Shown: piece by piece, positions 1,101 to 45,996 of the stretch
How positions within the stretch are numbered: position 1 is the stretch's first letter
Layout: each line of letters starts with the position of its first letter
Notes under the pieces: model-generated
The model's input: the letters and a program-made list of their open reading frames with translations, nothing else
Databases searched by the model: none
What the model was told of the DNA's origin: nothing
Program-made: the position numbers and the translations under genes
DNA from: Girardia tigrina
Lineage: Eukaryota
NCBI GenBank assembly: GCA_001938485.1
Contig: MQRK01212946.1
Location: 14,853-78,852 of the forward strand
Direction of reading: 5' to 3'
DNA: 64,000 bases

Positions 1101-4096
1101 CCGTCTTGAACTGGGCCGCAGGACACCGGAAAATTCCAGGTGGGTCGGTAGCTGCCAACTGTCAAAAGAAAATTATTATATTTTTAATTTTTAAATTATT
1201 TTTCAATTTTAATTTTTTTATTTTTAATTTTTCTTCTGCTTAAATATTTTGTAATACTTAAATGTTATTATTCAATAATCAATAATATTGCTTATATTGA
1301 TTCAATATAAACATTTTTACCATACTTTTTACAAAAAAATATAAAAGAAAAGGTTAGTTAAATATTTTTAATGATTTAATTTAAATCGTTCGGTTAAACA
1401 AATATGGTGGTTTTGGTGGTGCGATAATGGATTATCATTTATATTTATATGTTATTAGTTCAGCAGTGTAACAACATTTAACTTACACATAATTTTTGTG
1501 TTTAAACAAATTTTTCAAATAATTATATTTTATTTCCAACATACATACTCTACCCCACAGAAAAATGAATAAACGAAAAGGAGGAGCTGAGAAAGAACGA
1601 ATAAGAAAGAAATCACTTTTAGAGAACGATGCCCAGAAATGTAAAAAGTTAACAAACATGTTTGCAACATCTTCTAGTACTAACTATATTGCCAATATGA
1701 GTACGGCTAATGAGGCACATAGTTCTAAAATTGAAACAGCAGATAGTTTCGATGATATTGCTGTTAATGTAAACTCATATTCTAACTCTGATATTCAATA
1801 TAAATTGACCACTGTGACCAGTAGCTAATTGCAGCTAAGTGAAGAAACTCATAATGACTATAATTATTTTTCGAAACCACCAGCGGATCGTTTGAAACTA
1901 TTTTTTAAATTTCATCCGAAACAAAACAATTTTGATCTCAACGTTAAACTTAATTACCAGAACGTTTATTTCAGAAACAATAAGCCTTGCCAATAGTTGA
2001 CTTACGACAAAAACAATCAAAAGTTGTTTTGTTCATTTTGTCTGGCGTTTAGCAAAGCTTCAGATTAATCAACGTTCGTTAGTGGTTACAACATCATGAG
2101 GTCCAAGCATATTTATCAAAGAATATCAGAACATGAAGGAAGTGCACTCCATGCAGTCTGCACGGAATCATATGTTTTAAAAATCAATGCCAAAGATATT
2201 GCTAGCATTTATACACACCGACGTGCTGAAGAGGTTAAAAAGAATCATTTAATTTTAAAAAGAATCATAGAAACTTTAAAAGTTATAGGTAAGCGTGGAC
2301 TTAGCTACTGAGGGGCAGAAGAGTCAGGGTTCCCTTTGCTAGATGACAGTGTAGATCACGGAAATTTTTTAGAAATTCTTTTACTTGTTAGCAAATTTGA
2401 TCCATTGTTAGAAGCGCATATAGAAGATGTGGTTCGAAAAAGCAAATCCCATCATGATTCATTTAGCAACCGCAAAGATCGTGGGGACTTGGTCACATTT
2501 CTGTCAAAAATGACTGTTAATAAAGTTATTGATGCTGTATCAATATAATTCAATTTAAGACAACAAAAGACAAATGTAACAAAAGATCAGCTTCAAACTG
2601 AATTATTGGATTTTGCAAGGAAATGGGAAAATTTTCAAACAACTCTTGAAAATGAATATAATTTGATCTTTGAAATGGAAGTATCAGACTCTGTATCAGT
2701 AGTATTACCAGGCAAAAACCACAGAAATAAATGCAAATCTTGCAAAAAATGTATTGTTTGTTGTTATTTTGTTCTCCAGAAGTTTAATTTACATAGTCTT
2801 GCTTATTCAAATTTGTATCTGGCTTACAAATTTGTTTTGACATTATCATCATCACAAGTTGCTTGTGAGAGGTCGTTTTCAAAATTGAAATACATTTTGA
2901 ACAGATTAAGAAATTTGCTGAGCCAGTCAACTTTACAATCATTCATGCTGATGTCTTGTGAGAAGGACCTTCTTCCAAGAATCAATAACAATAAAATCAT
3001 TGATGTTTTAGCATCGACTAGTGAAACGATGAAAAAACTGTCATATTGGTTAATAGTGAATTGAAATTTTAAACTCTAGTGTTTAGATTGTTAAAACTAG
3101 GAGTTATTGAACTATTTAATGTTTGTTTTGCATAATTACGAATTTGAACATGTTACATGTAATAAATAAAAACATTCTTACAACTTAAAGTAGTGTTTTT
3201 GAACTTTAAAATTTCATTATATATGTTGGGAACGTTCATAAATTAAAATTTTTGAATGTTATGAAATTATTAGATAAACAATTACATTCCATAAAATATT
3301 GTTATAAATATGTTAAAATAGATTTTCAGAAATTTAATATANNNNNNNNNNNNNNNNNNNNNNNNNNNNNNNNNNNNNNNNNNNNNNNNNNNNNNNNNNN
3401 NNNNNNNNNNNNNNNNNNNNNNNNNNNNNNNNNNNNNNNNNNNNNNNNNNNNNNNNNNNNNNNNNNNNNNNNNNNNNNNNNNNNNNNNNNNNNNNNNNNN
3501 NNNNNNNNNNNNNNNNNNNNNNNNNNNNNNNNNNNNNNNNNNNNNNNNNNNNNNNNNNNNNNNNNNNNNNNNNNNNNNNNNNNNNNNNNNNNNNNNNNNN
3601 NNNNNNNNNNNNNNNNNNNNNNNNNNNNNNNNNNNNNNNNNNNNNNNNNNNNNNNNNNNNNNNNNNNNNNNNNNNNNNNNNNNNNNNNNNNNNNNNNNNN
3701 NNNNNNNNNNNNNNNNNNNNNNNNNNNNNNNNNNNNNNNNNNNNNNNNNNNNNNNNNNNNNNNNNNNNNNNNNNNNNNNNNNNNNNNNNNNNNNNNNNNN
3801 NNNNNNNNNNNNNNNNNNNNNNNNNNNNNNNNNNNNNNNNNNNNNNNNNNNNNNNNNNNNNNNNNNNNNNNNNNNNNNNNNNNNNNNNNNNNNNNNNNNN
3901 NNNNNNNNNNNNNNNNNNNNNNNNNATATATATATATGAAATAATTATAGAAACTAAAGAAAAATATATGAAAATTAAATTAAATTAAAAATAAGTAGTA
4001 ATATTAAATTATTGAAAAAATTTATATGAAACTAATGATGAAGTGCGCCGCCGCCTTGATCAAATTTCCCGAGCCGGTTTTTTAAGTCCGACTCTG
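1101..4096 (+). mobile_element. Defective hAT transposon (Tip100/ZMYM1-like transposase, internally deleted)
   Basis: 8-bp TSD ATTAAACT at 1093-1100 and 4097-4104; degenerate TIRs; broken ORFs 1565-3064 with a Zn-finger-like FCSFC, a DUF4371-like GNFLEIL block and the hAT dimerisation motif VACERSFSKLK; catalytic core appears missing; spans an N gap. Confidence 0.88.
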
Positions 4097-4792
4097 ATTA
4101 AACTAAACATTTTTAATTATTTTGATTATATTTTTTAATTAAATGAAACATAGAAAAATATAAGGAATATTCAGAATAATTTTTATAATTTATAATTTAT
4201 TTTATAATTTATTAATTTTATAATTTATTTTTTATTATAATAAAATGTAGCTCGAGGCGATTCAAATAATCTCACTAAAACTGAAATCACAGTTTCATTT
4301 TCTTTTGTTGTTTGTAATTAAACTTTAATTTAATTGGATTGTAGAAACTAAGATCAATATGGAAGAGATGACATTCTTTTTGAAATTCTTTTCTCCTCAT
4401 TGGGTCCCTCTTCTATAATTATCATAATATGGGTCTCTAAATAAATAAAAAAAATTTTCATCAACAAATTACAGATGAAAGAACTTTATTTATTTAATTC
4501 AAGACTAATAGGAAATACATGAACAATGATCGGTATTCCGTTCTCAAGTACCAACATTTAGCATTTACTAAATGAGTAAATGATCTTTTTTTCTATCGTT
4601 TCATACTTTACAACGTAACAGAGATATTTCATTGTAATAACAATTTAAAGTTACTAAATCTTAGTCTTCACATTACATAAAAATCTGAAATCCACTTATT
4701 TCTGTACCTATTTTAACCTTCTATCTACTAACGATACTTATAATTACCAATTACTCTAAAACTTTAGGGCGAAACCAATTTTAAGAGAACTA

Positions 4793-6220
4793 GTAGGGAG
4801 AAAATGGGCATTCTGCACCACCACCACCCCATGTGGGTCACTTTGCGATGACAATAATTACCATGGCAACGGTCGCGGTTACCATAGAAACGGTCGAGGT
4901 TACCATAGCAACGGTTCCGGTTCACGTGGCAACGCTTCTGATTGGTCCTTGGTACCTTAACCTAGACAGCAACGGTTCCGGTTCACTTGATAGCACTTTT
5001 CATTTGTTCCCGGTTCCCTAGTAACGGTTCCGATCACCCTAGCCTAGGCAGCAACGGTAACTAAGGTCTTAGTTACCATAGCAACGGTAACTAATGGAAA
5101 TTTTTCATTAGGAACGGATACAGTGATTCAAGGCGGTTGTAACCATGGTGACGGTTACCGTATCCATAGCATTGTGCCTATAGCACATTGACTTATAAAA
5201 GGTGTTTAGCGTTGTGTCAAAATTATATTTTAGTGAAATAAATGTTTATTAAATGTATAATTTATTGTTTGTTTTAATTTATTGTTTTAAATAAATAAAA
5301 ATTGAATAAAATGAACTCTCACAAGGTAAGTAGATGTTGACAATAGGAGTTTTACATGTTGTTTTTACATATAATATTAAAGGTTATGTATCTTAGTTAC
5401 GGTAACCATGCTACTTGTGATTGTTGATGGGGTACATTAGGCGAATCATAAGATATTGTTTGACGGTAAACAACATACATACATCATAGGGATTTCATAT
5501 ATATATACGAAAAAATCGATTTTCGAGCACTTTTTTGATAATTCCAGAAATGTTCGAAAAACTCAATTTATCAGCACTTTTTCGAAAATGTTGATATGGA
5601 ATATGAATGTACTTATATGGGTTCATATTCAAGTACATCAGCACTTTTTTGATATTGTACTTCCTTGTACCTCTAAAATCGATGTGCATTTTGCGTAAAT
5701 TTGCACCTTAAGCTAATTATAGGAAAAACTAATCGATATATAAAAATTCTAATTGCACATTCAGATAGAGAATCAAAATGTGAATTCAAACATATGATAT
5801 TTGAAAAAATTATATGTATTGATTTTTTTCACTTTTGAACATGTGTAGCTTGAAAAGCATTGTGCTAGCACATTAGACATGTTGGGTACAATGTACACTA
5901 TCGATTAGCACATCTTGGCACTGTGCAATGATTGATTAGCACTTTTTTCTATGGTTGCTAGGAAAATGGTCACGGTTGCTATGGATACGGTAACCATAAC
6001 CATGGTTACAACCGCCTTGAATCACTGTATCCATTCCTAATAAAAAATGTTCCTTGGTTACCATTGTTATGGTAACTAAGATCTTGTTTACCGTTGTTAG
6101 GGACCCGGGAACCAATGAGAAGCGCAATCAAGTGAACCGGAACCGTTGCTATGGTAACCGCGATCGTTGTCATGGTAACCGCGACCGGGTGGTGGTCCAG
6201 AATGCCAATTTTCTCCCTAC
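4793..6220. mobile_element. Non-autonomous TIR DNA transposon with X-box-like subterminal repeat arrays
   Basis: TIRs GTAGGGAGAAAATgGGCATTCTGcACCACCAC / inverse at 6189-6220; 8-bp TSD GAGAACTA/GAGAACTT; about 400-bp inverted subterminal arrays of GTTRCCATRGCAAC-like units. Confidence 0.9.
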
Positions 6221-6228
6221 GAGAACTT

Positions 6229-6950: not shown

Positions 6951-7059
6951 ATTGAAAAAGATAAACAAATTTCCAATGGCAATCAAACGGATAATGTAGA
7001 CATCAAATTTTATGAATTGGACAAACGATGTTACTTTTCCGATGGCATCAGAAAAATAG
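6951..7059 (+). CDS. ANO7: Anoctamin (TMEM16, ANO7-like) exon, first identifiable in window
   Basis: ag|ATT...ATA G|gtttct; encodes IEKDKQISNGNQTDNVDIKFYELDKRCYFSDGIRKI(D), the anoctamin 'YF.DG.R.ID' motif; phase 1 matches the next exon. Confidence 0.85.
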
Positions 7060-8170: not shown

Positions 8171-11100
8171 TTGTTCCTATTGATTGTTCCTTTATATTTT
8201 ATTGTTATAATTTTTTTGGATTGATATATAAAGAAATAATTGTAATGACCAGTGACTGTAAATAAAAATGTTTCAACCAACACCTTTATCAAAATCGTAA
8301 ACATAACCACACATGACAATCAATAACTCTCCATTTATCATCAGGGGGACTACTGTAATAACCTAAGAATATGGTAATAGTCTGCTGACATCAATTCAGT
8401 TTTTTTGTATGTATTCGTTTCGTTATTTTTTTTTGGTCTTGTGTTGTAATTTTTTTCTTTTGTACGGCTGTCATTCGTATGTGTTAATTTATTTTTCTTT
8501 TGTGCGTGTTGAATAATTTTTGCGTTTTATATTTTTTTATATATATTCTTTGTATGCTTGTGGTTATGAAAGAAAATCTTTAATTTATTCTGAAAGACGG
8601 ATATTTTACAAAACAAATTAATTCCTTAACAATGCGTTCATATTAATTAAGAATGAGACCAATCATCAAATTAATAATTAAAATACTCGAAAATCGAATC
8701 ATTTGTTCATGATTAATAAACGCTTTCTTTAGCAGTTTAGTATTTTTTGTGACCAGAAATTATTGAGATTTAATAAATATATGAAACAAATACATCATCC
8801 ATCAATAATATAATTTTACCGTCGTCAGTTAATGAAAGAGTGAAAGAACATTTTTGGAAAGAAGAAAGAATTTATTTTTATATGAGAAAAAGAGAAAGAT
8901 AATTGTCAAGGCGGAAATTATTCTTATATAAATTAATTATATAACTTCAAATTCAAATTAAAGTTTGAATTTGAAATTATATTGATTGCAGAATTAATTT
9001 ATATGGCCTGCATTATTATATTTAGCTGTTCCGACTTAAAATATACGGAAAGACTGAAATTCTGATTATAATTGTGATCACATAAATTCCTAAATATCAT
9101 CAACGTCTTTGAGTAGCATTTTTGTTACCGAATAACAAAAAAATCATCATCGTGACTGAATCAGCGTGTATCATCCTTTTTGCTCATTTACCGACTCAAT
9201 AGTGATAACCGGTTCCGACAAATATTTTTCAAAATTTAATTACGATTCACATTTCGTCCAATTCTCCAGTTACATTTTTGCAAAGACTTGGTGTAAGAAT
9301 CCGATATCACTTGTACGGTTATTAATAATTAAAATTTGTTTGCTTTACATTGTAAAATTGTTATTTGATTATAGTTCTCTCATTCTCATTGATAAGTTGT
9401 ATCGTCACTGCACTGATCAAGTTGATCAAATTGCATATAGTCATACATAGTTTGGTCAATTTGGTCATTCATTTATTCAGAGTTTAATTATTTTTTTTAT
9501 TATTCTAAACGATTTTAAGATTTCGATTTGAGTTACCTCCAGCAAGACTAACATTTGGTAATATATCTTTGCAAACTGCACTGGTGGTAACTGGATTCGA
9601 TATTCTTATTATTAAAAAAAGTCTAAATAGAGATAATTTATTTGTTAAAGCTCACCCTTTGGCCTACATCTATTAGGGAACAAAGAGTGAGCTTTACAAT
9701 AATGATATTGATCAAAGATAAAACGAAATCCAGATGATAATTTTCTTTTAAAAACAACACATCCAGATATTGATTAAATGGATATTTTTTATAAGGATGA
9801 CTAAACCTGTAGTAAAAAATTCGAATATTTGAAAAAATTAGTAAATACACTTTGAAATATTGAAATTAAAATGTAAAAGTTTATTAAAAAGTGCAACTAT
9901 TATTCAATCATCAATAATTACTGCAAATGTCAAAATATTCCTAATTGTTCTTCCAATTCCTAATTATTCAAACAAATAATTAAATGTTGATTAAATTAAT
10001 TCGTTCTCATGAAGTATTCCTTTTACGTTCAAGATTCATACCAGAACCTTTAAAACTAAAATTCACCCTCCCAGTCCAAGACGTTGGTAATTTCGAAATA
10101 ACATTTATTTAAAATTTGACTATAATAATTTCAAAATTAAACGTTTGAATAAACTTATATTCTAAACTCCTGATTGCAACTGGTTGATTTCTTCGTCTTT
10201 TATGTTAAATATCGATTTCCCCATCTATGAAATTCATGAATAGAAGAACGTTTTCATTTATAGTGTTGGATTTTGGGGAAATATCCAGTAATGAATATAC
10301 TCTTAATTATTTTAAAAGGGTGATTAATTCTTATAAGAAATAAACGAGATACGTCGATAAAATAATTACGTTCCACTAATTTCTGAAATTAAAATAACTA
10401 ATTTCATAAAGGCTGCGTTGAAGAAAGTTTGTGACTCCCTTTATTATATACCCAGATAAAAAGTCCAGATGAAAAGGATACAAGAACATAAACTTGTTAA
10501 CTGGTTATGGCGAAATATTAAAAAAATAAATAAATAAAAATATGAATAAAAATAAATATAAATATGAGGAGGTAATTAATTTTGGTTCGCTGATCAAAAT
10601 TTAAATATTTTTAAAAAAAGATTATTTTGAATTTAAATCAAATTGAAAATTTTAAAAATTAATTAGAATTAATTAAGTATTTTAAATTTGATTTTAAGGA
10701 CATTATTTATAAATTTATTTTGAATTAAAATAGTATCTTAATAGAAAAAATGAGTGATCAAAACAGATAACAAAACAGTAATTTTAAAATAATTTCAATC
10801 CGATTAAAAAAATAATAACATTTACAAAAATGTATTTTCAAATTTTAAATTAATTTTTTATATGATTAAAAAATTAAATATTTTAAAAATAAAAAAATTA
10901 AAGTATCTTTTAAAATAAAACGTATTTTTAAACTTTTTTAAAATAATAAAATATTCAAAAAAGTTTTTTTAAAAAAACGCAAAATTAAAAAAAAAACAGC
11001 ATATAAGATTTCAGTTGAAAAACAAAATTATAAAAAACATTTTAAAGTATTAAAGTAAAAAAAAAACAAATTTTAACATTAAATATTTTTAAAACATTAA

Positions 11101-12342: not shown

Positions 12343-13560
12343 TTATATTTTCTGTAGTTTTGACAATGCAGAAGTGGCACTGTGTAAAACTTGCATGAAA
12401 ATACCAATCACGTAACCCGTATATTGCAAGGCGAGAAAATATAAATAAATAAACCATCCTATAGTCGCAAGAGTATTCGTCAGAAGCACAACAATTAGCA
12501 CTAAAGTATCCTGTAAATCTAATATTAATCTCAAGAAATTCGAGGTGTCTTTTATCAAACCGAATATCGTTCCAAGCAAAGATCTTACGGTATCGTAAGT
12601 TTTGATTAAATTCGATTTTAGTAGGTTCACTTTGACAATTGTAAAACGTAAATTGGCGACTGAAACGAGAACGAATGTGATAAAGGGAGCGATTTCTACA
12701 GACGAAATACTCAATAGGATAAAGAATTGACTAATTTGGTTTTTCGTTAAATTAGCGATGGCATCGGCGTCCATCTTCAGAAAATTAATCGTTTTATCAA
12801 CAGTTGGGAGCAAAATGACGTGACTAAAGAACTGGAAAATCGAATAAACGATCCAGGAAATGAGAAAAAAGAAACCGAATACGACTTGAAAGAAAACGTG
12901 TTTGGTAACGATAAGAATGAATTCGATAAATTTCCATTTGATCCAGAAAAATCGACGAAGTATTTTGTAAACGTGTATGTAGTCCAAATTAATAGTGGGT
13001 AGTTTCATAGAGGAAAAGTTGATACTCTCTACATATCCAATACAATTCTCTAAGTGGCGATTATTGAGGAATTTATCGAGAAACTTTAGAATCAAAACTA
13101 TCGCAATAGTCGTAACGGCGAGAATCTGGATGATTAATTCCGTTCCATAGACCCCGATGAAAGTTCCTATTCTAAAAACGAATTTGAGACAGAATTTCAG
13201 GAAAGAATTTCCGTATTTAGCGATATACATTGCTTCATCTGCTGTAAATTTCATCGCTTTAGTTTTCGCTTTCTTTTTCATTGTTGTTTTCGGAGTACTA
13301 GCCGCGGCTTTCGACAACTTCATCTGAATATCATTTGTTTGAGGTAGTTTTTGGAAGATATTCTTATAGGGATTATTCGATTTCGGACCATTTGCCACAG
13401 AATCATGTTGCCATTGTTTTTCACTATCTTCACTTTCGTCCGAATGTTCTACCGAAACTATCGGATTATTCGATGGTCGAAAACATTTTAAAAGTTTATT
13501 TTTTGTATCTTCTCTCAGCTTTACACAATTAATATTTTCTTCATAATTACTACCAAACAT
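12343..13560 (-). CDS. Orphan 405-aa single-exon ORF, predicted multi-pass membrane or amphipathic protein, antisense within an anoctamin intron
   Basis: ATG-to-stop uninterrupted 1218-bp ORF in very AT-rich DNA; hydrophilic basic N-terminus followed by several long hydrophobic segments; no TE motif recognised. Confidence 0.65.
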   Translation of the reverse strand: MFGSNYEENINCVKLREDTKNKLLKCFRPSNNPIVSVEHSDESEDSEKQWQHDSVANGPKSNNPYKNIFQKLPQTNDIQMKLSKAAASTPKTTMKKKAKTKAMKFTADEAMYIAKYGNSFLKFCLKFVFRIGTFIGVYGTELIIQILAVTTIAIVLILKFLDKFLNNRHLENCIGYVESINFSSMKLPTINLDYIHVYKILRRFFWIKWKFIEFILIVTKHVFFQVVFGFFFLISWIVYSIFQFFSHVILLPTVDKTINFLKMDADAIANLTKNQISQFFILLSISSVEIAPFITFVLVSVANLRFTIVKVNLLKSNLIKTYDTVRSLLGTIFGLIKDTSNFLRLILDLQDTLVLIVVLLTNTLATIGWFIYLYFLALQYTGYVIGIFMQVLHSATSALSKLQKI

Positions 13561-14475
13561 TAGTTTTAGTTTGGTTTTTATTAATTCAATAAATATTTTA
13601 TAATTAAAAATATTGAATGATGATAATACATCATTATATTTTTATAAGATTTTCGGTAATATTTCGATACGTCTATTGAGAAAATTCTTTTATTAAGTTT
13701 CCTTCTTACAAATGCGTTTTTAAATGACTTATTTTTACATCTTATCATAAAAAATGAAAAAGAAGATTTCCAGAAATAACTTATGAGATCAACTGTTTTA
13801 TCTTTATGTATTTAAAATCATTTATTTATCTTTCGAATTAATTCATTTATCAACTGTGTTAATTCATATCCATTAAGAATAGCGACCTAAAATAATGAGA
13901 ACAAAAGAAATTCTGTTCCAATGTTGGCACATTGGCCAATCGTCGAAAAATGCATTTCATCTCAACAAAAATCAAATCTCTTCAGATAGAGAGCAATGAT
14001 ATGATGGTAAAAGAAAATGTTCTTAATTATCAGAAAGAGATGATCGATCGGGTGTCGGGAAAATCCTGAATTAATTACACAGGTAGCTCCCAGAATCAAA
14101 ACAAGCAATATCAACAATTCAGATGAAACACCTGTGGCTCCCAATACATCAATTTACTGGGCAACAAGGAAAGAAGAAGTCGTTCCGTCGGCCTCAGGCA
14201 GTAATAGTGGAACTCGCAAAATATAGGAGCAATGAAAGCAAAAGGCTCCACAATCTAAGATTGAGCTTGAGAAAATTTTATGCAGACAAAAATCTACTTT
14301 GCGAACAAAGTTTTAATTAATAAATAATTTAAAGAAAACAATAAAAAAATAAAAGATTAATATAAACTATTTATAATTTATAAGTAGATCTTTTTCAATT
14401 AACATTGTTCAGAAACTAAGATGGGACCGTTTTTTCCAAAATCTTGAGACCTTAAAAAGTTCTTTTTGATCGAAT

Positions 14476-22339: not shown

Positions 22340-25300
22340 AGTACTTTAAAATCAAAAATACTTACAAAATAAATAAGAATAAATCAAACTTTTCAAAAAT
22401 ATATTTTTAATGACATTTTAAATATTTAAACAAAAAATTATCATGCTTTTTATTTAAATATTTAAATTAAATGTTTATATCATAGACAAATTCTTTATTT
22501 GTCACATTCATCGTCACTCGATGTAGAGGGTAGCCCCGATCGACTCCAACAGTTTAGATTTTGATTTTATTTTCCTGGTTTATGTTGGATGATGAAATCA
22601 AATTCTTGCAGGAACATACTCCATCTTGCCAGTTTGTTATTTTTGGTTTGAAGCGTTTGTAACCATACCATGGGCTTGTGGTCGGTTTTGGCAGTGAGTT
22701 GCTTCCCATATATGTAGTAGTAATATTGCTCAATCGCAAATACAAGGGCATATAGTTCCTTCTCATTAGCTGACCATCTTTGTTGGGTTTCTGTTAGTTT
22801 TTTTAATCGAAACGCAATTTGGTGTTCGATATTGTCATAGAATTGTATTAGCATAGCGTCAACCGCTTGGTCAGAAGCATCGGTTTGAATAATGAACTCC
22901 GGGGAAAGATTGTGTTTTCAATTTGAATCGGAACTTTCGAGATCAATTCCATCGATTGAGGCCATTTCCCGGGATCTTGATTCGGATGGCCCCCGGTTGT
23001 TGTCCATTTTCGGGACGGTTTTTTGTTCGGCAAAATCGAAGATTTTCTCCCTCCAATTCGCTTGTTTTTCTCGTTCGATAAAAAGGATACTTCTAATTTC
23101 TAACTCTTTTTTCTTCAATTCGAATCGATTGCCGTCTTTTAACAATCGAAGACGTGTTCAATTGATTATCGACTTTTCGTGATTTCTTAGGAGTGTTTGA
23201 TTCAATCTCGGGTGCAATTGATTTTCTTCGTTTTAATTATTTCGGTTTCTCGGGTTTCGTTTCCAATTCCAATTTCAGTTCGATTTGAGAAACGGATTCC
23301 GGTACCGATTGATGTTCTGCGCGGATTTCTAATTTGGTAATGATGCTCGATAATGTGTTCGAGTTTCCAATTTCAATATTTGATTGATTTTTCGATTTTT
23401 CTTCGTTATTTCGCGGTGAATTATCGATTTTTGTCGAGTCAGTATTGACAAATTCGATGTGAATTTCGGTCGTTTTAATCAAATCAATATCGACTCTATC
23501 GAGTGTTTCCATTTCGATATCCTCAGTTTCCGCTTTGATTGGTTCATTGATCAAATTTTCCATAATTTCTTCGTTTTTCGTGTTGATTTCGTGTTGATTT
23601 AAACTATCTACCAATTCGATTTTATTGAGATTTTCTTCATGTATTTTTTTGTTTGAAAGATTTTTTTCATCTATTTTTTCTTCACAAAATACTGTAAATT
23701 CGGTCTCGATTTCTTCCGCTATGATATTCTGTGAAAGCGGCGCTCTCTTTTCATTGGATTCTTCATTAATTTCGATAGAGGCGAATTGATTGTGCGTAAA
23801 TTGTCAGAGCTTTCCTGACTTGTTTTGATTCTATTGAATTTTTCGGACGTGTTTTCATAAATTTCCGAGAGAATTCGATCGTTTCCGTGTTGTCGCGATG
23901 GTTTTCGGAGAACAATCAGCGATTTTATCGTTGCAGAATTGTAATTTGGTGATTGGATTTAAATTTATTGTTTCTTCAAGAGTTTTGTTTTCCGTTTCCT
24001 TGAGCTGAGCTGTTTTTGTCTGGTTATTATTGCGCAGATATTTTCTAAATCATTACCCAACAGGACTCCAAGATTAGTTTTCAGAATCACTGCATTCACT
24101 GATACTGGAGTACCTTCAATCTCAAAGTTCATTTTTGCAACTGGGGCTTCTTCGGTCTGGCTGTTCGCTAAACAGACATTAACAATTTTGTCTGTATATT
24201 GATGTTTCTCGACCAACTGGGTGGATAACCGTTGATGATGCTCCTGTATCTCTGACCATTCTGATATTTTTGTTTCCTCTGATATTTCCTGAGAACACAT
24301 ACTTTTTTGGGATATTGAATTCGTCGTTGGTTGCTAAGTTAATATTAGGTTGGTCGAAAAATACTGGTGGTTTTGGGACACAAACTTCAAAGACGTGCAA
24401 ATTCACAGAAACATAAGTTTATTAATCAAAGTATGAACCGTTGGCATCAATACATTTTTGCCAACGAGAAACAAGTTGTTTTATTCCATCAGCATAAAAT
24501 GCATCGGTTCTCGAAGCGACGAATTCTTGGAAAGCATTTTGAGAATCATTTTGGTTTTTGAAATTTTTTTCCCGTAGGAAGTTGTACAAGTGCCTGAAAA
24601 AGTAGAAGTCCGTTGGCGAGAGGTCTGGTGAATATGGTGGATGAAGCAGGGTTTCATAGCCCAACTCATTAAGCGTTTGAAGAGTCACTTTTGAAATATG
24701 AGGTCTAGCNNNNNNNNNNNNNNNNNNNNNNNNNNNNNNNNNNNNNNNNNNNNNNNNNNNNNNNNNNNNNNNNNNNNNNNNNNNNNNNNNNNNNNNNNNN
24801 NNNNNNNNNNNNNNNNNNNNNNNNNNNNNNNNNNNNNNNNNNNNNNNNNNNNNNNNNNNNNNNNNNNNNNNNNNNNNNNNNNNNNNNNNNNNNNNNNNNN
24901 NNNNNNNNNNNNNNNNNNNNNNNNNNNNNNNNNNNNNNNNNNNNNNNNNNNNNNNNNNNNNNNNNNNNNNNNNNNNNNNNNNNNNNNNNNNNNNNNNNNN
25001 NNNNNNNNNNNNNNNNNNNNNNNNNNNNNNNNNNNNNNNNNNNNNNNNNNNNNNNNNNNNNNNNNNNNNNNNNNNNNNNNNNNNNNNNNNNNNNNNNNNN
25101 NNNNNNNNNNNNNNNNNNNNNNNNNNNNNNNNNNNNNNNNNNNNNNNNNNNNNNNNNNNNNNNNNNNNNNNNNNNNNNNNNNNNNNNNNNNNNNNNNNNN
25201 NNNNNNNNNNNNNNNNNNNNNNNNNNNNNNNNNNNNNNNNNNNNNNNNNNNNNNNNNNNNNNNNNNNNNNNNNNNNNNNNNNNNNNNNNNNNNNNNNNNN

Positions 25301-26200
25301 NNNNNNNNNNNNNNNNNNNNNNNNNNNNNNNNNNNNNNNNNNNNNNNNNNNNNNNNNNNNNNNNNNNNNNNNNNNNNNNNNNNNNNNNNNNNNNNNNNNN
25401 NNNNNNNNNNNNNNNNNNCTTGCCAAACGCTTTATTGATATTGCGAGCCGTTTCTGCTGCTTTACGACCCAGTTTAAATTCGTACAAGAAAATTGATCGA
25501 ATTTTAATTTTTTCCATTATTAATTTAGCACCGTAAAAATTCTAAAAAATAACAGCAATATGTAAGTAATGGCCATAGGAATATAAAGCTAGGTATAAGA
25601 TTTCAAATAATATCTAACACTAATGCATTTAAACTTATATACATATCAAAGTAGATAAACAAAGTATAAAGCTCAAAAACCGCCATTATTTTTCGACCAA
25701 CCTAATATTTAGTGTTTTAAAGTTTCTTGACATGTGATTTGCAGAGCCACAGGTGAAGCACTTTCTCCCATCCATTGCTGTGATCCGGATTTTCTCATTG
25801 TGTATAATGTGGGCATTGCAGTATCTATCAGCAGCTTCTGCTATTTTCCTAATATTTGGAAATTCATTTTCTTCTATCTATTTCCTTATTCTTGGGTCTA
25901 GGTTTCGGCAAAGCTGTTTTTCGAATACTAATTCCATAAGACGTTCGGCTGTTGTTGCGTTTCTTGAGTGAACCCATCGATTTAGTTCGGAGATTAGTCT
26001 TGTTAACCATTCAACATGGTTTTCATTTGCTTTTTTTCTTGATGCTCTGAAGGCTTTTCTGTGCTCATCTGGTGTGACATTAAATCTTCTAAATAGGGCT
26101 TCTTTAATGTGCTCGTAGTTTTTGGAATACTCTAAACTAATTCTTAGGAATGTTTCTCGAGCCGAGCCTGTCGACAACGAATGAAGAAATAGCCCCAAAT
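22340..26200 (-). mobile_element. Decayed Gmr1-like gypsy LTR retrotransposon
   Basis: SCAN-like capsid (YEHIKEALFRRFNVTPDEHRKAFR), Zn knuckle CFTCGSANH, protease RDTGASSTV, RNase H (TDASD...EKELYAL...TDHKP) at the 3' end, then a probable LTR starting TGTGAC at 22506; RT and integrase not seen. Confidence 0.82.
24345..25705 (-). mobile_element. Mariner (cecropia subfamily, Hsmar1-like) inserted in the gypsy element
   Basis: TA-flanked TIR TTAGGTTGGTCGAAAAAT; MEKIKIRSIFLYEFKLGRKAAETARNIN and HPPYSPDLSPTDF; middle is an N gap. Confidence 0.95.
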
Positions 26201-26224: not shown

Positions 26225-27180
26225 TTTACAATGTGTAGGTCGAGATGAATGAATATCCAGGAGTGGTAATGCAAATCTATGAACGCAAACTTATTGGAGG
26301 GAACCAGATAAGCGGACGACGGAAGCAACATCTGGATGAATATCTCAAGGTGGATATGCACTGGCTCTTCGGAGACCAGTATAGCATTAATGATTTTTAT
26401 AGAGACATTCAGCAGAACAGCCTACTAACAACAGAGGTAAGAATAGAGAAAGTCATCAAGCTAAAAAAAGTGGAGAGAAGAGTAAACGAGAACACGATGC
26501 GATTAATTCTCCCATGACTCAAAGAACACAGTTGCCCAATGGAAGACTGCTATCGTCAATTCGTGGAGATCAAAGAATTGAACAGACATCTCCGGCGGGA
26601 TCATATCGGAGCTGAGCCAATACCGAGAAAACAGAGACAGAAGACAGCCCAGCCACGACAGAAGAAAGGAGTATACAAGTGTCTTCACTGCCCAAATGAA
26701 TACATGTGCGCAGAATGGCTGAAGATCCTCTTACAGAAGAATCACTAAGAAGAACCAGAGCAATCCAACACCCAGAGAGACGACAACTTGCTAAGAGAAA
26801 AAGATGAAGAGCCGAAAACAATCCAACCAAACCCTTAGTTTCTGCACGATACTATTGGTATGCCGGGGACCCAGAACTAACAAGACGCTGAGAAACACAC
26901 AGAGACCACCGATTACCCGATATGAAGGCAAAAGGAAATTTTCAGTGTCCATTTCTCGGTTGTTACGTGTCCACCGTAACAGCTAAAGACATGTATGGCC
27001 ATGGTACCAAGTTCCATGGTAGGTCATTCGTCACTGGAAAGCCGACTGCTCAGAGGCGGCAAGCCACTGACCTTATAGGAGGCCTATCGGGGGGCCCTTA
27101 AAGACTTTAGTTTGGGTGGACCCTCTAAAGAGCCTTTGGCTCAATACCATTGAAAGAGATGGGAGGCCCATGATTATTTC
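26225..27180 (+). mobile_element. LINE 3' portion with C-terminal C2H2 fingers
   Basis: CPMEDCYRQFVEIKELNRHLRRDH, YKCLHCPNEY, FQCPFLGC...H...H; conserved 3' UTR; TAT-type tail. Confidence 0.78.
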
Positions 27181-27363
27181 TATAACTCCTATCAGATACT
27201 CTAATTTTAGTTATTCCAAACCGACACTTTTTTTAGAATATCCATGTAAGAATCTTACAAATTGATAGAGATAATTTAATTATTTTAGTAGTACATCTGA
27301 ATTGCTTTTTCAGTATCTTATTATATTCTGTATATCTTCTGTGTCTATATTTAGATTATATAT

Positions 27364-28227
27364 ACGGTAACCATGGTACTTGTGATAGATGATGAAGTAC
27401 ATTGAGCGATTCATGTAGTATTGTATGATGGTAAACAACACATATATATCATATGGGTTTCATATATATACGAAAAAATCAATTTTGAGCACTTTTTTGA
27501 TAATTTCAGAAATGTTCGTAAAAATCAATATTTCAGCACTTTTTCGAAAATGTTAATGCGGAATCAGAATGTACGTATATGGGTTACTATTCAAGTGTAT
27601 CAGCACTTTTTTGATATTCTGCTTTCTTGTTCATCTAAAATCGATGTGCACTTTGTGCAAATTTGCACATTATGCCAATTATAGGGAAAAATAATCAATA
27701 TATGAAATTTCTAATTGCACATTCAAATAGAGAATCAAAATGTGCATCAAACACATGATATCGATTTTTGACACTAGTACTTTTGAAAAATTTTATGTAT
27801 TGCATTTTTGCACATGTGCAACTTAAAAAGCACTGTGCTAGCACATTAGAAATGTGCGGCAAAATGTACACTATCGATTAGCACATCTGGGCACTGTGCA
27901 GTGATCGATTAACACTTTTTTCTACGGTCCTTAGTGATAGGGTCACGGTTGCCATGGATATGGTAACCGTTACCATTGTTACAACTGCCTTGAACCACTG
28001 TATCCGTTGCTAATAAAAAACATCCTTTAGTTACCGTTGCTATGGTAACGAAAATCATGGTTACCGTCACCAAGTGAACCGGAACCGTTGCTATGGTAAC
28101 CGATAACGTTGCTATGGGGATCGCGACCGATGCTATGGTAACCGCGACCGTTGCCATGGTAACAGTTGTCATGGCAATGGCGTCCCCCCCCGGGGGGGGT
28201 GAGGGAGAACATACATTTTTCCCCTAC
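27364..28227. mobile_element. Truncated second copy of the X-box-array transposon family
   Basis: Aligns with 5399-6220; right TIR ...TTTTTCCCCTAC; 21-bp-phased GTTGCTATGGTAAC units. Confidence 0.88.
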
Positions 28228-28981
28228 TAACCAAATACTAAAAATAATTACAGCAACCGACTTTTCAGTGAAAAAGAAATCTATAAAAACCAATTACCCA
28301 TTTTTTTAATTGTGATTAAATATGAATAAATATTTAATCAAAATAAATTGAAATAAAGTCAAAATGAAAATTATTTGTAATGAAATTAGTTAACTTTTAA
28401 ATAGAAGCATCAACGAAATGCATTTAAAATAATTTGAAATGAATTTGTAACACCAGAAATAAATTTATATTATAGATCAAGTTGGTTGTAAAAAATTATT
28501 TAATAAACGTTTTAAATTGTTGAGATAAACAATGAATCTTTTCATTTCCTGTTCAAATATCGAATGAAGAGGGCGATAGGGATGCATAAAATTGGCCTCG
28601 ATTGTTTTGCTATCGTCTGTCACTTTAATAATTGCTAAATCCTTTCAATTTCGATTACGTTTTCCCTTTGTAATTGAAAATACTTGTTAATATTTATCTA
28701 ACAATTAGATTTTCCCAACAATTTCATACATTTAATAACCACATTTCCCTCATTTCTAATAAATCTTTGGTAGATTTTTGTATCTATATGTATATATGAA
28801 AGTGGTTAATTAACATAAAATGTATAAAAATATTTGTAATTTATAAATACAATTAGGATCATTAGATCTTAATTGTATCTATTAACGATTACAAAAATTA
28901 GTGGAAGCCAAAATTTTATTAATTAAGGTGGTCGGATTTATAAAAAAATAAAAGTAAAGGTACGGAGTAAATGGTTTAATT

Positions 28982-31179: not shown

Positions 31180-31578
31180 TATTAACAACTTCATTTTGAG
31201 TTTTACAACATTTATTAATATCCCAAGAGTATTCACTATTAGACATTTTTCTTGATCAATATATTTCTGAATTCATACTAATTATTTTCAATAAATGAAA
31301 ATCTGTTAATAAAAATTATTAATTATAAAGAATCTAATTGGTTAAAATTAACTCTAAACATTTTAAAAAGTACATATTAAATTATAATATTAAAATTTTA
31401 AATTACATTAAAAAATAAATGATATATTCAAAAAATATTTTAAATCTTTTTACTTTAAAATTAAATTATTTTTAATTAGTAGGAATCAAAGAAAATACCA
31501 ATCATCCATCTGTGTAGGAGAGGCACAATCCGAAACAACATGCACAATATCAACACACAATTCAAAACATTCCTCACA
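31180..31578 (-). mobile_element. Solo LTR (TG...TA)
   Basis: TSD CTATA at 31175-31179 and 31579-31583; close match to the 37724 copy. Confidence 0.88.
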
Positions 31579-32863: not shown

Positions 32864-34143
32864 TTGGGTTGTTCGGAAAGTCATTTAGTTTTTTTGTATT
32901 AAAGTAAAAGACAAATTTTTATTACGGATAAATACTTTATTGAAATACATATTGACCATTGTGGTCCAATACCTTCTTCCATCTTCCTGGCAGTGACATG
33001 ATTTCATGTTCATAAAATATTTGTTCTTTACTGCTAAAAAACTTTTCCAGGTGATTTTTAACATCTTCATTTGATCCAAAAGTGTTACCATCTAAATAAT
33101 TTTGTAGAGACTGGAACAAATGATAATCAGAAGGTGCGAGGTCTGGAGTATATGGTAGATGAGGCATGATGTTCCAACCAAGCTGTAAAAGCTTTTGGCG
33201 AGTTACCAAACTTGTATGAGGTCTGGCATTATCTTGGTGAAACACTAAACCTTTTCTATTGATCAATTCTGGCCTTTTATGTTTAAGGGATTCATTTAAT
33301 TTGTCCAGCTGATGACAGTAGACGTCCGAATTGATCCTAGTTTTGTCTGGAAGAAGCTCATAAAATACGATTCCTTTGAAATCCCACCAAACAGATAACA
33401 TTACTTTTTTTGATGAATGTCAGTTTTCGAAGTGCTTTGAGCAGGTTGATCTTTTTTACTCCAAGATCTCTTGCGTTTTACATTATTGTAGACTACCCAT
33501 TTCTCATCTCCAGTAACGATGCGCTTCAAAAATGGATCATTTTCTTGACGTTTGAGAAGCATATCGCAGATGTCTAAACGACAGCATAAATTTCGTTCGG
33601 TAAGATTATGAGGAATCCATGTGTCCAGTTTTAATGTAAAACCTAGGCACTTCAAATGATCATGGACGGTCGAATTAGATAAATGTAATGTATGGGCAAT
33701 TTCGCGAGTTGTTATTCGCCGGTTTGAATCAATTAATGCCTTTATTATGTCTTCGTTGACTTCAATGGGCCTTCCGGAACGTGAAGAATCTTCAACATCA
33801 AAATTTCCGGATCAAAATTTTTTAAACCAGTTTTGGCATTGGCGTTCTGTCAACACATCTTCTCCATACATTTCGCATAATTTTCTTCCTGCTTATACAG
33901 CATTTTTACCTTTTCGGAAGTAAAAAAGTAATACATCCCGTAAATGCTGATTCTTTCTTTCCATCTTTGATAGGTCAAAATCAAATATAAATGTTTTTAA
34001 TTATTCCAAAATTTTCCAAATCTAACCTTGATTGCCAACTGGTAAAATAAATAATATAGTCAATGATTATTAATGATTATTAATATAAAAAATACATTTA
34101 AAACAAGTATTAAAAAAACGAAATGACTTTCCGAACAACCCAA
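32864..34143 (-). mobile_element. Full-length defective mariner (mellifera-like)
   Basis: TA-flanked TIR TTGGGTTGTTCGGAAAGTCATTT; WIPHNL, TGDEKW, HQDNARPH, YTPDLAPSDY; frameshifts and stops. Confidence 0.95.
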
Positions 34144-34329: not shown

Positions 34330-35487
34330 TTAGGGTGAGTCATAAGTTGTGGGGCACTCTTTCCAAAGTAATTATCTTTAATTACAACATGAATTGTCGA
34401 ATCGATATTAATTGAATTTGTATATAAAGCTCATAAACTGAAGTTTCAGTATTTGTAAGAAAATCATGATTTTATGTTCATTCTAATTTTTTAAACATTT
34501 TAGAAAATTATGGAAAAATTTGAAATTAGAGTAATTTTAAAGGGAGGGCTTTGTCTCCAAATCTTCGGCAGCAAGATGGTTTAAAAAATTTAACGAAGGT
34601 GACATAAGCCTCGAGGATCAAGAACGACCGGGACGACCGCCAACACTGGATTCTAAANNNNNNNNNNNNNNNNNNNNNNNNNNNNNNNNNNNNNNNNNNN
34701 NNNNNNNNNNNNNNNNNNNNNNNNNNNNNNNNNNNNNNNNNNNNNNNNNNNNNNNNNNNNNNNNNNNNNNNNNNNNNNNNNNNNNNNNNNNNNNNNNNNN
34801 NNNNNNNNNNNNNNNNNNNNNNNNNNNNNNNNNNNNNNNNNNNNNNNNNNNNNNNNNNNNNNNNNNNNNNNNNNNNNNNNNNNNNNNNNNNNNNNNNNNN
34901 NNNNNNNNNNNNNNNNNNNNNNNNNNNNNNNNNNNNNNNNNNNNNNNNNNNNNNNNNNNNNNNNNNNNNNNNNNNNNNNNNNNNNNNNNNNNNNNNNNNN
35001 NNNNNNNNNNNNNNNNNNNNNNNNNNNNNNNTGATCAACTAGATGGAATGTATACCGCTTTAGGTAAAAAATATCCGGCATTGATAAACCGAAAGCAGGT
35101 GATACTGCAACAAGACAACGCATCTCCCCACACCGCTGCTTTGACACGTCATAAAATAGAAGAACTCGAAGCTATCGAACGTCTTCCACATCCTGCCTAC
35201 AGTCCTGATTTAGCGCCTTCGGATTTTCATCTTTTCCAAGCTATGTCGCATTTTTTGAAGGGAAGGAGCTTTTCCGATATCGACGACGTCGATAATTGGC
35301 GTCGAGAATTTTTTGCTTCTAAAGACAAAACATGGTATCGACGCGGAATAGAACAACTTGCAGAACGTTGGGTACAATGTATTGAACATAATGGACTTTA
35401 TTTCGAATCATAATCTTTATTGTGCGTTGTTTTATGAACATTTTAATTTTTAATAAAAAGTGCCCCACAACTTATGACTCACCCTAA
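34330..35487 (+). mobile_element. Mariner element
   Basis: TIR TTAGGGTGAGTCATAAGTTGTGGGGCACT; QDNASPH and HPAYSPDLAPSDF; N gap inside. Confidence 0.93.
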
Positions 35488-35629: not shown

Positions 35630-37050
35630 TGGTCAGTCTATCATTTTTCTAGTGATGGTCTTCAATCAGAATACAATTTGTATGTTATTTGGAAAGCTTA
35701 AATAGTGTGAAACTTCATTTGATAGCTACAGCGATTATTTTACGTGTATGACTCATTGAGACCAAAACTTATAATTATTTCAATTTTTAAGGAGCAATGG
35801 TTTGTTAAAAAGTATTTTATATTGTGAAATATGTAGAAATTTACAACAAATGTTATAAATCTCTTAATGTAAACAAATTAAAATACATTTCGATTCGGAA
35901 AAATTCGTTTTTCGAAGTGTGAGGAATATTTTTGAATGGTGTTTATTGTGTGTTGTTTGGTATGTTGTTTTAGGATTGTGTTTCTACCACCAAGATGGAA
36001 GATTGATATCTTAAATATTTTAAAACGTCGAGTTTAATCAATTATTAAAAGTTAAATAATCACTTTAAAATTAAACTAATATTTCATAAATAATATTTTA
36101 ATAATAATTTCTTAAAATAAATAAAAATTATTTTAAATTTCAATTATAAATAATTTTTGTAATAATTAAATTATAATTTAAAGTATAAATTATTTTTGTA
36201 ATGATTAAATTGCATTTTAAATTTGTTTGAATAATAAGACGTTAAAGAATATTATTAAAGATTATCAATCAAGAACGATGACGGAGTTTTTACGGAGAAT
36301 TGTTGTAGTGACAATTCAAATTGTGATAATAATAAATGTAAAGGAAACTAAATTAATGTTTTTAATACGAAGAGTTTACAGTGGAATCAATAGTTGTTTT
36401 TTGGGTTTGTTTGGATTGGTTTTTAGATCAATCAACGTCTTATTCTTATAAATTCCACAAAATTTCACGATGTTGTGTTATAAAAATTTATAAAAATTAA
36501 GAATTAAATATGAAAAATACTTTATTGAAAATTCAATTACACTCGGTGAAAATGACATTATTTGCCAAATTGATGAGTCAATGTTTAGATACAAAAGAGT
36601 CACGTTGGGCGAGTCAACAGTGATTATAAGTGGATTTTTGGAATTGTTGACATCACGACTTCACCCTCAAATTATTATGTTGAACTTGTTGAAAATCGTA
36701 GAAGAGAAACGTTGATGCCAATAATTATTGGCAATAATTATGCCAATTATAATTGAAAGAGTTTGTAGAGATGGAAGTATTATACACAGTTATGAATTAA
36801 TAGAATGATTAATATGATTAAATTAACACATCAAAATGTAAAACACAGTCTGTTTTTTGTTGATCCACTTACAGTTGTGAAAACACAGTGTGGAATCCTT
36901 ATGGAATAAGTTGAAAATCAGATCGAAAAAATGATGGGTATTAAACATGATGCCTTGCCTAAATTTTTACAAGAATGGATGTTTAAAAATAATATTGCTA
37001 AAAATGTTGTTTGATTGTTTATTTTAATAAATTATTAAAAATTGTATTTT
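35630..37050 (+). mobile_element. Decayed Merlin (IS1016/ISXO2-like) transposase, interrupted by a solo LTR
   Basis: SIRKNSFFE|EF..., ICQIDESMFR, WIFGIVD, VENRRRETLMPII, GSIIHS, HQNVKHSLFFVDP; ends approximate. Confidence 0.85.
35918..36367 (+). mobile_element. Solo LTR (TG...TA)
   Basis: TSD CGAAG at 35913-35917 and 36368-36372. Confidence 0.88.
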
Positions 37051-37723: not shown

Positions 37724-38136
37724 TGTGAGGAAATTTTTGAATTGTGTGTTGATATTGTGCATGTAGAATGTTGATTCGGATTGTGCCTCTCCTACACAGA
37801 TGGATGATTGATATTTTCTTTGATTTTTACTAATTAAAAATAATTTAATTTTAAAGTAAAAAGATTTAAAATAATTTTTGAATGTATTATTTATTTTTTA
37901 ATGTAATTTAAAATTTTAATATATTAATTTAACATGTTCTTTTTTTTAAAAAAAATGTTTATATTTAATTTCAACCAATTAGATTCTTTATAATTATTAA
38001 TTTTTATTAACAGATTTTCATTTATTGAATATAATTAGTTTGAACTCAGAAAAATATTGATCGAGAGAGATGTCAAATAGTGAATGTGCTTGTAATATTA
38101 ATAAATGTTTTAAACTTCATATTGATGTTGTTAATA
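37724..38136 (+). mobile_element. Solo LTR (TG...TA)
   Basis: TSD GTCCA/GTTCA. Confidence 0.85.
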
Positions 38137-38879: not shown

Positions 38880-41800
38880 AAGAAAAGGGAACAAGAAATG
38901 ATATCAACAATTACCGAGGGATATTCTTGCTTGAAGTTGGAGGAAAGATAATCTCTCGGTTTATAGTAAATAGACTTATCCCGAAATTGAAAGAGAAATT
39001 GATGAACGACAATTTAGTTTCTAGAGCCCAGGGGAACGCAACACGCAAAATGTGTTATTCGGAAGATTCTGGAAGAAGCAATATACAGAAACCAAGATGT
39101 ATATGTAATTTTCATAGTGGACCAAGAAAGGTGCTTTGGACATGCGTAAAGAAATTTGGAATAAATGGCAGAATAATCAACATGATTACCCAATTTCAAG
39201 ATTCAAGGGTTAAATTGGTGAACAAGAGTTCACAATGTTCAAAGGTGTAAAACAGGGTTGTGCCTTGGGACCAATATTGTGTTTGCCAGAGCACTGAAAC
39301 TAGCAGAAAAAAATGGGATGACATAAGGGGTACAACTACGAAATGAGGACGGAACCGAACTGAAGACCAATCATTTAGCGTATACTTTTTGTCTCATTGA
39401 CAAGGACTATAATGAGTTAACAAGAAATCTGCGTAATCTAAATGGGGTGCTCCAGTAACTAGGTCTACAGATTAAAATAAAAAGACCAGGATTATGAATC
39501 TAAATGGTGATGCAAAAATACAAACGCTAGATTGCAATATAATGTCAGGATGACCGAGTTCAGTTACATTGGATTAATAATATCTTCATACCAAACTTCT
39601 GAGGCAGATATCAGAGAGAATATAAGGAAAGAGTATGGCAAACTACGAACTATGAAGCCTATCCTGAAGTGTCCAAAACTAACGATCCGAAGTAAGCGAA
39701 AATTGATTGAGAGTTGTATATTACCTGTAGTATACTATGGGTGTAAAAATTGAAGGACTACCGATACACTGATAAAGAAATTAGAGAGCCTACACAATTA
39801 TGGTACTCGCCTGGTGTTGGGGATAAAAAATATCAGAAGATCAGAATGGATATTGTAAAGGGAAGAATTACACATATTTCTGTTCTGCCAATGAGGTTGT
39901 GTTGTCTGTAAGTCTAATACTGACTGTGCTACGTGATTCATGATTTTAGAGAAGTTTGTATATGTATATGCATGTCCTGTGTTGCTCATTGTTGACTTCT
40001 CAATGTCTTGTGTGAATTTTATTTTTTGATGAATGAGTTTTTTTTATTGTCGAAAATCGGAAATACATTTGCCGACGTTTGACGTGGTCGTTAGCAATTT
40101 TTAAATGAACGAATGTGTGCAATTGGTGATTGACGATGGAATGACATAACAGCCGTCCTACTCGCACTCAAACACAATTAATATCAAGCGAAAAAAGCAT
40201 TCCGTATTTGAAACCGTTTTGTCTACCAAGAAATATTTAATTATTTTGGTTTTTATTGTGATAAAGGTATCAGAACAACTGTTGTTCATAATTGCGTAAC
40301 CAGCCCCTTATCTTAAACTAATGAACATTGACGTTATCAAATTAGTTCAAGAAAGTTTCAATGTCACAGAAATAAATAAAATTGTCCGAAATTAAGGAAA
40401 AAGAAAGAAAAGAAAAAAAACAGTCCAATCGTCTCGATGAATCGTCAATCATAATATATATATATATTTACATTTATCAAAGACTAATTAGCTAAAATTA
40501 GAGAGGAAATGTTCTGATAATTGTCTAAAATGTTATAATATTTAAACTGTAATGATAGCCAAAATGTGAATTTGTAGAAAGTAAGCCAAAGGAAAATATG
40601 TCAATCAAACGTTACTTTAGAGTTTTTCTAAAGATTCAATCAGCTTTAAACAAAAAAAAGAAAAATTAAAAAAAACGTCTCCTGTCGATTTATAAATATA
40701 TTTCCTGACAAAATTAATATTAGTCAGTTGAATTATAATTAAGGCGAATTATAATTAATTCCCTATGGAAATTATAATTCAAAAATGAATATTTAATCAC
40801 AAATAAAATATTTACTAAGCGAATTCAGACTGAAATATTCTGTTACGCTATAAAATGCCAATTCCAAATTAGACATATTACTCGACGATTTTTCCGATTT
40901 CATATTCGCTGCTGTATTACGACATTCGACCTGAGATTCCTACCTCATTAGTACTAAAAAAATAACTTTTCATCGATATCTGAGCAAATTAAACGTCCAA
41001 CACTTACCGGTTATAATTATTACTTTGTACATACTTTTGTTGTGTTTATCATTTATCAACAATACATTTATTTTGAAAATTTATTTAATTTTTTTTATTT
41101 TTATTTGGGAATTGCTAAGTTAAGCTAATCAACGTGTTAGGTTAGCTTAGTAATTTCCTTAACATATAGAATAATTCACACATCGCTCAGTCATTCAGAT
41201 AAGTGAATCATTCTATATAGATATAATCCCAATTTGGTTACCTCACCAAATGGACATTCTAGTTAAGAGACGGCTCCCGTTCCACGCTCTCATAGCTACA
41301 AGCAATGAATCGACGATCCTGAAGAGTCATTAAACCCTCCATGACAGATGGTAAGAAAATCTCAGTAAGAAAGAAGTGACAAATCAGAGAATGCTTGAGA
41401 GTTGATGCGGAATGGCTTTTGTGAGAAACCACCTCCTTTGATGATTTTTTAAAAGTAATTCAGCAGGAAGGCGGTCGACCCAAGATGAAAGATAGAATCG
41501 ACTCAATTATATGTGAGAGGCACATACTTGGGCGGAGATCAAAACTCATACCAAAATTCATCAGACTGCGGATGAAACTGTTTCAGTGTTCATAAGAATC
41601 TTGTTTATGGTAATTTGCGGAGCAGACAGAATTGAATCGACACGAGAAACAAGATCATACACCAAGATTCCCTCAAGAAGAATATCCGGAAGGATACAAT
41701 TGCCATCTATGCCGAAAGATTTACAAGACTAAAGGATGTCTCATTAGACATCTCAGAACAGTGCTCAAAATGGAAGAAGAACAATTAGTTCAAATATTTT

Positions 41801-45990: not shown

Positions 45991-45996
45991 TTTATA

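Follow-up and report, generated by a model that had tools for sequence, protein, structure and literature searches.

X-box-like arrays in the inverted arms of a gene-less mobile element from Girardia tigrina, a possible Polinton derivative

An anoctamin-7-like gene and two copies of a gene-less element

The window analyzed in this study, a stretch of 64 kb of Girardia tigrina DNA, is spanned by a plus-strand anoctamin-7-like gene, the exons of which were mapped with nine named homologues, with the best named matches found in Macrostomum (62%), which, like the low GC of the sequence, points to a flatworm host. An internal N-terminal coding exon of this gene (6951-7059, plus strand) aligns weakly when taken alone (E 0.06-0.4) and continues into the exon near 17371; further exons on the same strand lie near 19661, 20118, 42931, 57548, 57754, 63711, and 63922. 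Since a splice acceptor belongs to the 6951-7059 exon, the alignment of which begins at residue 34-62 of the homologues, an earlier anoctamin exon must exist, for which the plus-strand segment 6498-6607, ending in an ATG before a GT donor, is a candidate. The initial annotation had placed a transposon about 730 bp upstream of an anoctamin exon. This exon is indeed real; however, the existence of an earlier one implies that the transposon either precedes the gene or occupies one of its early introns, so that a promoter location is no more than a possibility. Within an anoctamin intron, a hydrophobic open frame of 432 codons was also observed on the antisense strand (12343-13641, minus), for which neither Pfam, nor atlas, nor homologue comparisons yielded a match.

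The transposon, referred to as copy 1 (4792-6221), is a complete element of 1,430 bp with long terminal inverted repeats and no genes. Its left arm (4792-5171, plus strand, ca. 380 bp) starts with AGTAGG, its right arm (5977-6221, minus strand, ca. 245 bp) has a final base unlike that of the other two element ends in the window, and both enclose a non-coding core (5172-5976). The arms are inverted relative to each other and share 92% identity in 242 aligned columns, corresponding to a divergence of 8%. A second family member, which the initial annotation had missed along with the Polinton-type ends, is represented by its right 866 bp within an anoctamin intron (copy 2, 27363-28228, plus strand); it ends in CCTACT, and its left part is absent from the readable sequence of the window. 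The cores of the two copies in the 64 kb are 87.5% identical across 545 aligned columns. In line with the earlier reading as a DNA transposon with X-box-loaded arms, the long inverted arms and the flanking duplication identify copy 1 as a genuine transposed element.

Searches for coding content yielded no Pfam match among the 23 stop-free stretches of copy 1. Frames of 85-92 residues are open in both cores; they were rejected as conserved reading frames because of 1- and 2-base indels between the copies, and they gave no matches. When the pseudo-frame of the copy 2 arm was used as a protein query, six candidates were returned, none of them at E 0.01, and the comparison of the element with a phage collection and Rfam gave no match. 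The stop-free stretches scanned across the window (sets of 20, 67, and 131 of 173 long ones, the first two sets including most of the other 42 and all but about seven long ones being covered) contained no Polinton genes, and their matches were to mariner, hAT, retroelement, and zinc-finger pieces.

Two further observations concern the core. The motif AGCAC(A/T) recurs nine times in copy 1 (4991-5937) and seven times in copy 2 (27487-27879), mostly in the core, compared with 0.32 per kb elsewhere. In addition, the core of copy 1 contains a TATA box (TATAAAAG) at 5194 and, at 5311-5331, an ATG followed by five codons and the only plus-strand AAG/GTAAGT donor of the window, the phase of which matches that of the 6951 exon; this part is missing from copy 2. 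Judged from these signals at 5194-5331, a chimeric element-anoctamin transcript could be formed.

X-box arrays in the element arms

X-boxes were scored as matches to a consensus of 14 positions, with a threshold of at least 12/14 per site and 300 dinucleotide shuffles as control. Copy 1 contains nine such sites, compared with 0.08 on average and at most 1 in the shuffles; together, both copies contain 15 sites, compared with a single one in the remaining window. The seven 14-mers listed in the initial annotation were all found where it had placed them (7/7), and a search for them with up to two mismatches gave 23 matches in the window against a shuffled mean of 6.3, with 19 of the 23 clustering in 4857-6179 and 27948-28178. 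The strict X-box consensus RTNRCC N1-3 RGYAAC (PMC2375033) is matched seven times in the 64 kb, each time within the arms of the two copies. The claim of an X-box match far above chance is thereby upheld. The exact 14-mers were not found in a supplement of validated human X-boxes (0/6).

In the left arm, sites are located at 4857, 4878, 4899, (4920), (5012), 5072, and 5139, in the right arm at 5975, (5996), 6063, 6145, and 6166, and in copy 2 at 27969, 28036, 28087, 28129, 28150, and 28165. Their distance from the element ends in the window is 42-128 bp. CCAAT, E-box, and YY1-type motifs adjoin the X-boxes, among them a CACGTG at 4923 and CCAAT boxes at 4939 and 6110.

Many of the boxes form tandem arrays with a period of 21 bp and 2.0 to 4.1 unit copies per array. 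In the left arm, the units (4857-4933, plus strand) consist of an X-box and a 7-bp spacer, with the first box at 65 bp from the end. The number of boxes rose through tandem duplication of this 21-bp unit. Departures in ten units were less frequent in the box (14/140) than in the spacer (15/70; p 0.03, with units that are not independent of each other). Spacer bases are also conserved, with three of seven invariant across the ten units, and the most variable box position (G or A, 4:6) is one at which the consensus permits either base. While the 21-bp spacing noted in the initial annotation is therefore confirmed as the period of the tandem unit, its interpretation as helical phasing was not supported, since a spacing equal to the unit period is inseparable from duplication and provides no independent proof; of the twelve spacings between strong sites, five come to a multiple of 10.5 with a tolerance of 1 bp, and seven do not. 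Two helical turns may still matter, but the spacing itself is no demonstration of this.

RFX factors, which are found in all animals, bind an imperfect inverted repeat and act in the formation of cilia and sperm (PMC5838959). The boxes of the window resemble those of RFX-bound enhancers and promoters, such as those of ciliary genes and of hepatitis B enhancer I, in that seven of them satisfy the strict consensus; they differ in being tandem units within the arms of a mobile element. RFX1 is reportedly an activator of the hepatitis B enhancer, going by the title of a cited reference.

Paired X-boxes in other genome contigs

When contigs of prokaryotic genomes were scanned for X-box pairs with a distance of 21 bp, the spacing being imposed by the query and the element ends not being part of it, seven loci (L001-L007) were obtained. 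Long open frames cover 75-98% of five of these, compared with 9% of L002 and 0% of L004. The five (L001, L003, L005, L006, and L007) were set aside as bacterial, coding-dense DNA. L003 and L006 lie within 21-bp tandem repeats, and L001, L005, and L007 (each at 10001-10035) are bacterial pairs of X-box-like palindromes 21 bp apart, those of L001 and L005 being intergenic and resembling a repressor operator. These three pairs indicate that proteins other than RFX can use the motif.

L002 (WPAE01000077.1) and L004 (WPAE01000165.1) are two contigs of one Ignavibacteria MAG, and none of their 97 stretches had a Pfam match; most plausibly, they are eukaryotic repeat DNA contaminating the reference bin. 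An open frame in L004 (1583-1918) crosses the boundary of the repeat described below and was dismissed as probably spurious. Both contigs share a repeat of ca. 207 bp at 81% identity. Its boundary is sharp: identity is 9/10 over the initial ten bases and 2-4/10 outside, where the flanks align at the level of shuffles. The repeat starts with AGTAAGG in L002 and with AGTATGG in L004, where the start is preceded by AGT. When all 18,636 positions of both contigs were compared with the initial 26 bases of copy 1, the two repeat starts ranked first and second; compared with the other two window ends, their ranks were between 2 and 27. As the ends were absent from the query, this is independent, if limited, support for X-box arrays and this type of end traveling together, coming from two loci which were picked from seven after inspection and which each show one end and no genes. 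The X-box pairs lie no more than 160 bp from the end (133-154 bp in L004). E-box and YY1-type motifs are also present in L002 and L004, which suggests that several host-factor motifs cluster at such ends. Apart from the similar first 26 bases and the X-box pairs, the repeat differs from the window element by more E-boxes and YY1-type motifs and by the lack of an alignable body: blastn of both contigs against the element body revealed no similarity at E 1e-3.

Element ends and target-site duplication

The termini of copy 1 can be read in three registers, every one of which requires one substitution. In the preferred 6-bp register, the element (4792-6221) has AG ends and is flanked by a perfect target-site duplication, AGAACT, at 4786-4791 and 6222-6227 (6/6). 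In the 4-bp register (4791-6222), the ends are TAG and the duplication, GAAC, is also perfect. The 8-bp register (4793-6220), which had been adopted in the initial annotation, gives GT ends that are perfectly matched over 12 bp, with a duplication of 7/8. In 200,000 trials with random flank pairs, a comparable match over 6 or 8 bp arose in 0.18%, so that the insertion can be regarded as real in whichever register.

AGTAGG-type termini are present on two of the three window ends, since copy 1 has one on its left and copy 2 one on its right (CCTACT); the right end of copy 1 is CCTACG. From the three window ends alone, the registers receive weights of 0.48 (8 bp), 0.32 (6 bp), and 0.21 (4 bp). 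With the ends of L002 and L004 added, and still considering sequence only, the weights become 0.46-0.60 for 6 bp, 0.28-0.39 for 4 bp, and 0.11-0.15 for 8 bp, the last of which falls because an A stands outside the G in four of five ends. The base outside AG is T in four of five ends (G in L002), as a TAG terminus would give. The register thus appears unsettled by sequence alone, with the imperfect 8-bp duplication and its bounds being the least likely of the three.

Ends and duplications are the basis on which non-autonomous elements are classified (PMC4455052; PMC7805219). According to PMC10045372, duplications are 3-4 bp for AcademX, 8 bp for Merlin, 4-10 bp for MuDR, 6 bp for Polinton, and 6 bp with TA ends for IS3EU. 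Three further assignments were rejected: a TA-duplication (Tc1/mariner) register has negligible weight, hAT with TAGGG ends yields no duplication, and IS3EU/GingerRoot (6-bp duplication, TA..TA ends) is at odds with the AG ends of the 6-bp register.

Relation to Polintons and alternative readings

Vertebrate Mavericks are described to generate duplications of 6 bp and to carry arms of 46-1,447 bp (402 on average), with (AGT)2 being one of their end motifs (PMC8097293). The supplement of the same study contains 36 Maverick rows with an AGTAGG 5′ motif (25 from tuatara, 10 from axolotl, and one from gavial), of which 19 also end in CCTACT and have a perfect 6-bp duplication; one of these is an element of 2,085 bp for which no genes are scored. 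The window element resembles this AGTAGG//CCTACT type of Polinton/Maverick from tuatara and axolotl in its 6-bp duplication, in the six terminal bases of two of three ends, which are a variant within the (AGT)2 class of the 5′-AG...CT-3′ end motif, and in arms that, at 380 and 245 bp, lie within the range of 46-1,447 bp. It differs in its length (1.43 kb vs. 13-25 kb), in having no pPolB, integrase, or capsid genes, in its invertebrate host, and possibly in a far higher copy number. In addition, no X-box arrays are described in the accessible text of PMC8097293. In vertebrates, the median number of gene-bearing Mavericks per genome is 8, with a maximum of 287 (PMC8097293). The two copies per 64 kb hint at a high copy number, and their density may be high for Mavericks. 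As the element encodes no Polinton protein, we do not file it as a Polinton but describe it as a gene-less element with Polinton-type ends, probably a non-autonomous derivative, whose membership of the family is tentative. Still, the duplication, the ends, and the arm length, together with our own judgement, make a Polinton-type identity somewhat more probable than not. The supplement of a nematode Polinton paper (PMC10748475) contained neither the X-box motif nor any AGTAGG; it therefore probably holds little DNA and is uninformative on Polinton arms. Equally uninformative in this respect was the supplement of an adintovirus paper (PMC8502044), the readable part of which opens with maps followed by a network file and contained no match to the motif.

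The main rival reading is a non-autonomous AcademX-type cut-and-paste element at 4791-6222 with TAG ends, the boxes of which bind host RFX or a transposase. Its 4-bp duplication GAAC is perfect and of a length made by AcademX (3-4 bp; PMC10045372), a T stands outside AG in four of five ends, and its sequence-only weight is 0.28-0.39. However, two extra flank bases would have to match by chance, L002 has a G at the position outside AG, and the signature of AGTAGG//CCTACT with 6 bp is documented for Mavericks. Moreover, a transposase with an XPG nuclease is absent, with no Pfam match in the 23 stretches of copy 1. Academ ends are of the TA type. All in all, we consider this reading unlikely, though not negligible; if the element did belong to Academ or another cut-and-paste family with transposase-bound repeats, it would be an ordinary one. 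With even less probability, copy 1 is an element of the hAT, P, Merlin, or MULE group with an 8-bp duplication (4793-6220) and transposase sites as subterminal repeats. It has perfectly matched 12-bp ends and a 7/8 duplication, the three window ends alone favor it (0.48), and Merlin and MuDR make duplications of 8 and 4-10 bp, respectively (PMC10045372), but the A outside the G in four of five ends lowers its weight to 0.11-0.15. In addition, the end dinucleotides are YA in hAT, CA in P, GG in Merlin, and GR in MuDR, and the GT ends fit none of them.

Two other readings concern the boxes rather than the ends. The palindromes of a Polinton-type element might be bound by an element-encoded protein, or be inert products of tandem duplication, in which case their likeness to X-boxes would be convergent. 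That the spacers are conserved as well (three of seven bases invariant in ten units) and that bacteria carry like pairs in their genomes despite lacking RFX is consistent with this. On the other hand, all seven strict X-box matches of the window lie in the arms, the most variable position (G/A, 4:6) is one at which the consensus permits both bases, and further host-factor motifs stand alongside. We regard this reading as rather improbable. Finally, and compatible with any of the other readings, copy 1 might have been recruited by the anoctamin-7-like gene to serve as an enhancer or alternative promoter under RFX control. The distance is 730 bp to a coding exon and ca. 280 bp to the candidate ATG exon, which is usual for working X-boxes if the start site is near (PMC5838959), and the TATA box, ATG, and in-phase donor of its core would fit such a role. 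The arms, however, have diverged by 8%, an upstream X-box does not predict RFX control (PMC2375033), and copy 2 lies deep in an intron, as neutral insertions would; co-option has a small chance in our view.

A possible role for host RFX

The best explanation, which we favor tentatively and with close to even confidence, is a non-autonomous Polinton derivative whose terminal repeats recruit host RFX, the recruitment of RFX having already been proposed in the initial annotation. A Polinton/Maverick would have lost its genes while both terminal repeats remained, and the retrovirus-like integrase of a gene-bearing partner would have inserted the element and thereby generated the 6-bp duplication that is seen at its flanks. 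Under this explanation, the X-box arrays would be cis-signals inherited from the terminal repeats; host RFX, which is quite likely the ligand of the boxes, would bind the arms, keep the ends open, and aid end-primed replication or inward transcription, in analogy to NFI and Oct-1 in adenovirus, while the partner with genes would provide polymerase and integrase. Replication of Polintons is thought to be protein-primed and to involve jumping back at their terminal repeats (PMC8097293), the adenovirus replication complex uses host NFI and NFIII (PMC6141750), and polintons without polB can remain mobile (bioRxiv 10.1101/2025.02.07.637071). The adenovirus inverted terminal repeat, with its NFI and NFIII/Oct-1 sites, would be comparable to the window element in having host-factor sites near the ends of a protein-primed linear replicon; it differs in carrying single sites instead of tandem RFX arrays, and the window element is integrated and gene-less.

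A broader and clearly more speculative view, which we consider doubtful at present, is that X-box arrays are an ancient common feature of the terminal repeats in an invertebrate Polinton lineage, kept across distant hosts as an auxiliary origin or promoter like the NFI/Oct-1 sites of adenovirus. The tie of RFX to ciliated and sperm-forming cells might then offer a germ-line route, and gene-less derivatives might scatter multi-X-box cassettes at MITE-like numbers. The literature searched contained no report that connects RFX sites with the arms of Polintons or the ends of DNA transposons. Subscription journals and Repbase Reports lay outside this search, which means that the family itself may already be catalogued. 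The sole paper found with both Polinton and RFX (PMC11464507) names RFX just as a host gene in its accessible text, and the available passages of a planarian genome paper (PMC11410931) mention neither Polintons nor RFX.

The host factors employed by Polintons and the cell types that support their replication are open questions in the field. With RFX as a named factor whose sites lie 42-128 bp from the ends, the use of a host factor by Polintons becomes testable. A small, possibly abundant non-autonomous Polinton would moreover be unusual, and such an element would supply ready-made RFX sites and produce false hits when ciliary genes are sought by their X-boxes.

Other features of the window

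Next to the two copies of the element, the window contains pieces of several other repeats. A decayed hAT transposase remnant (Dimer_Tnp_hAT) at 1523-3064 was not similar to the element. Three C2H2 zinc-finger fragments that look related to each other (26239-27180, 41614-42234, and 59667-60056), one of them immediately left of the break of copy 2, are probably 5′ parts of a retroelement. A dispersed repeat family of ca. 400 bp with a TGTGAGGAA-type end is present at 15276, 29387, 31180-31578, 35917-36367, 37724-38136, and 53146-53550. Mariner-type transposase copies or pieces are found at 24341-25708, 32937-33811, 34541-35413, 45994-47352, and 50158-50484, with two of them being 94-97% identical.
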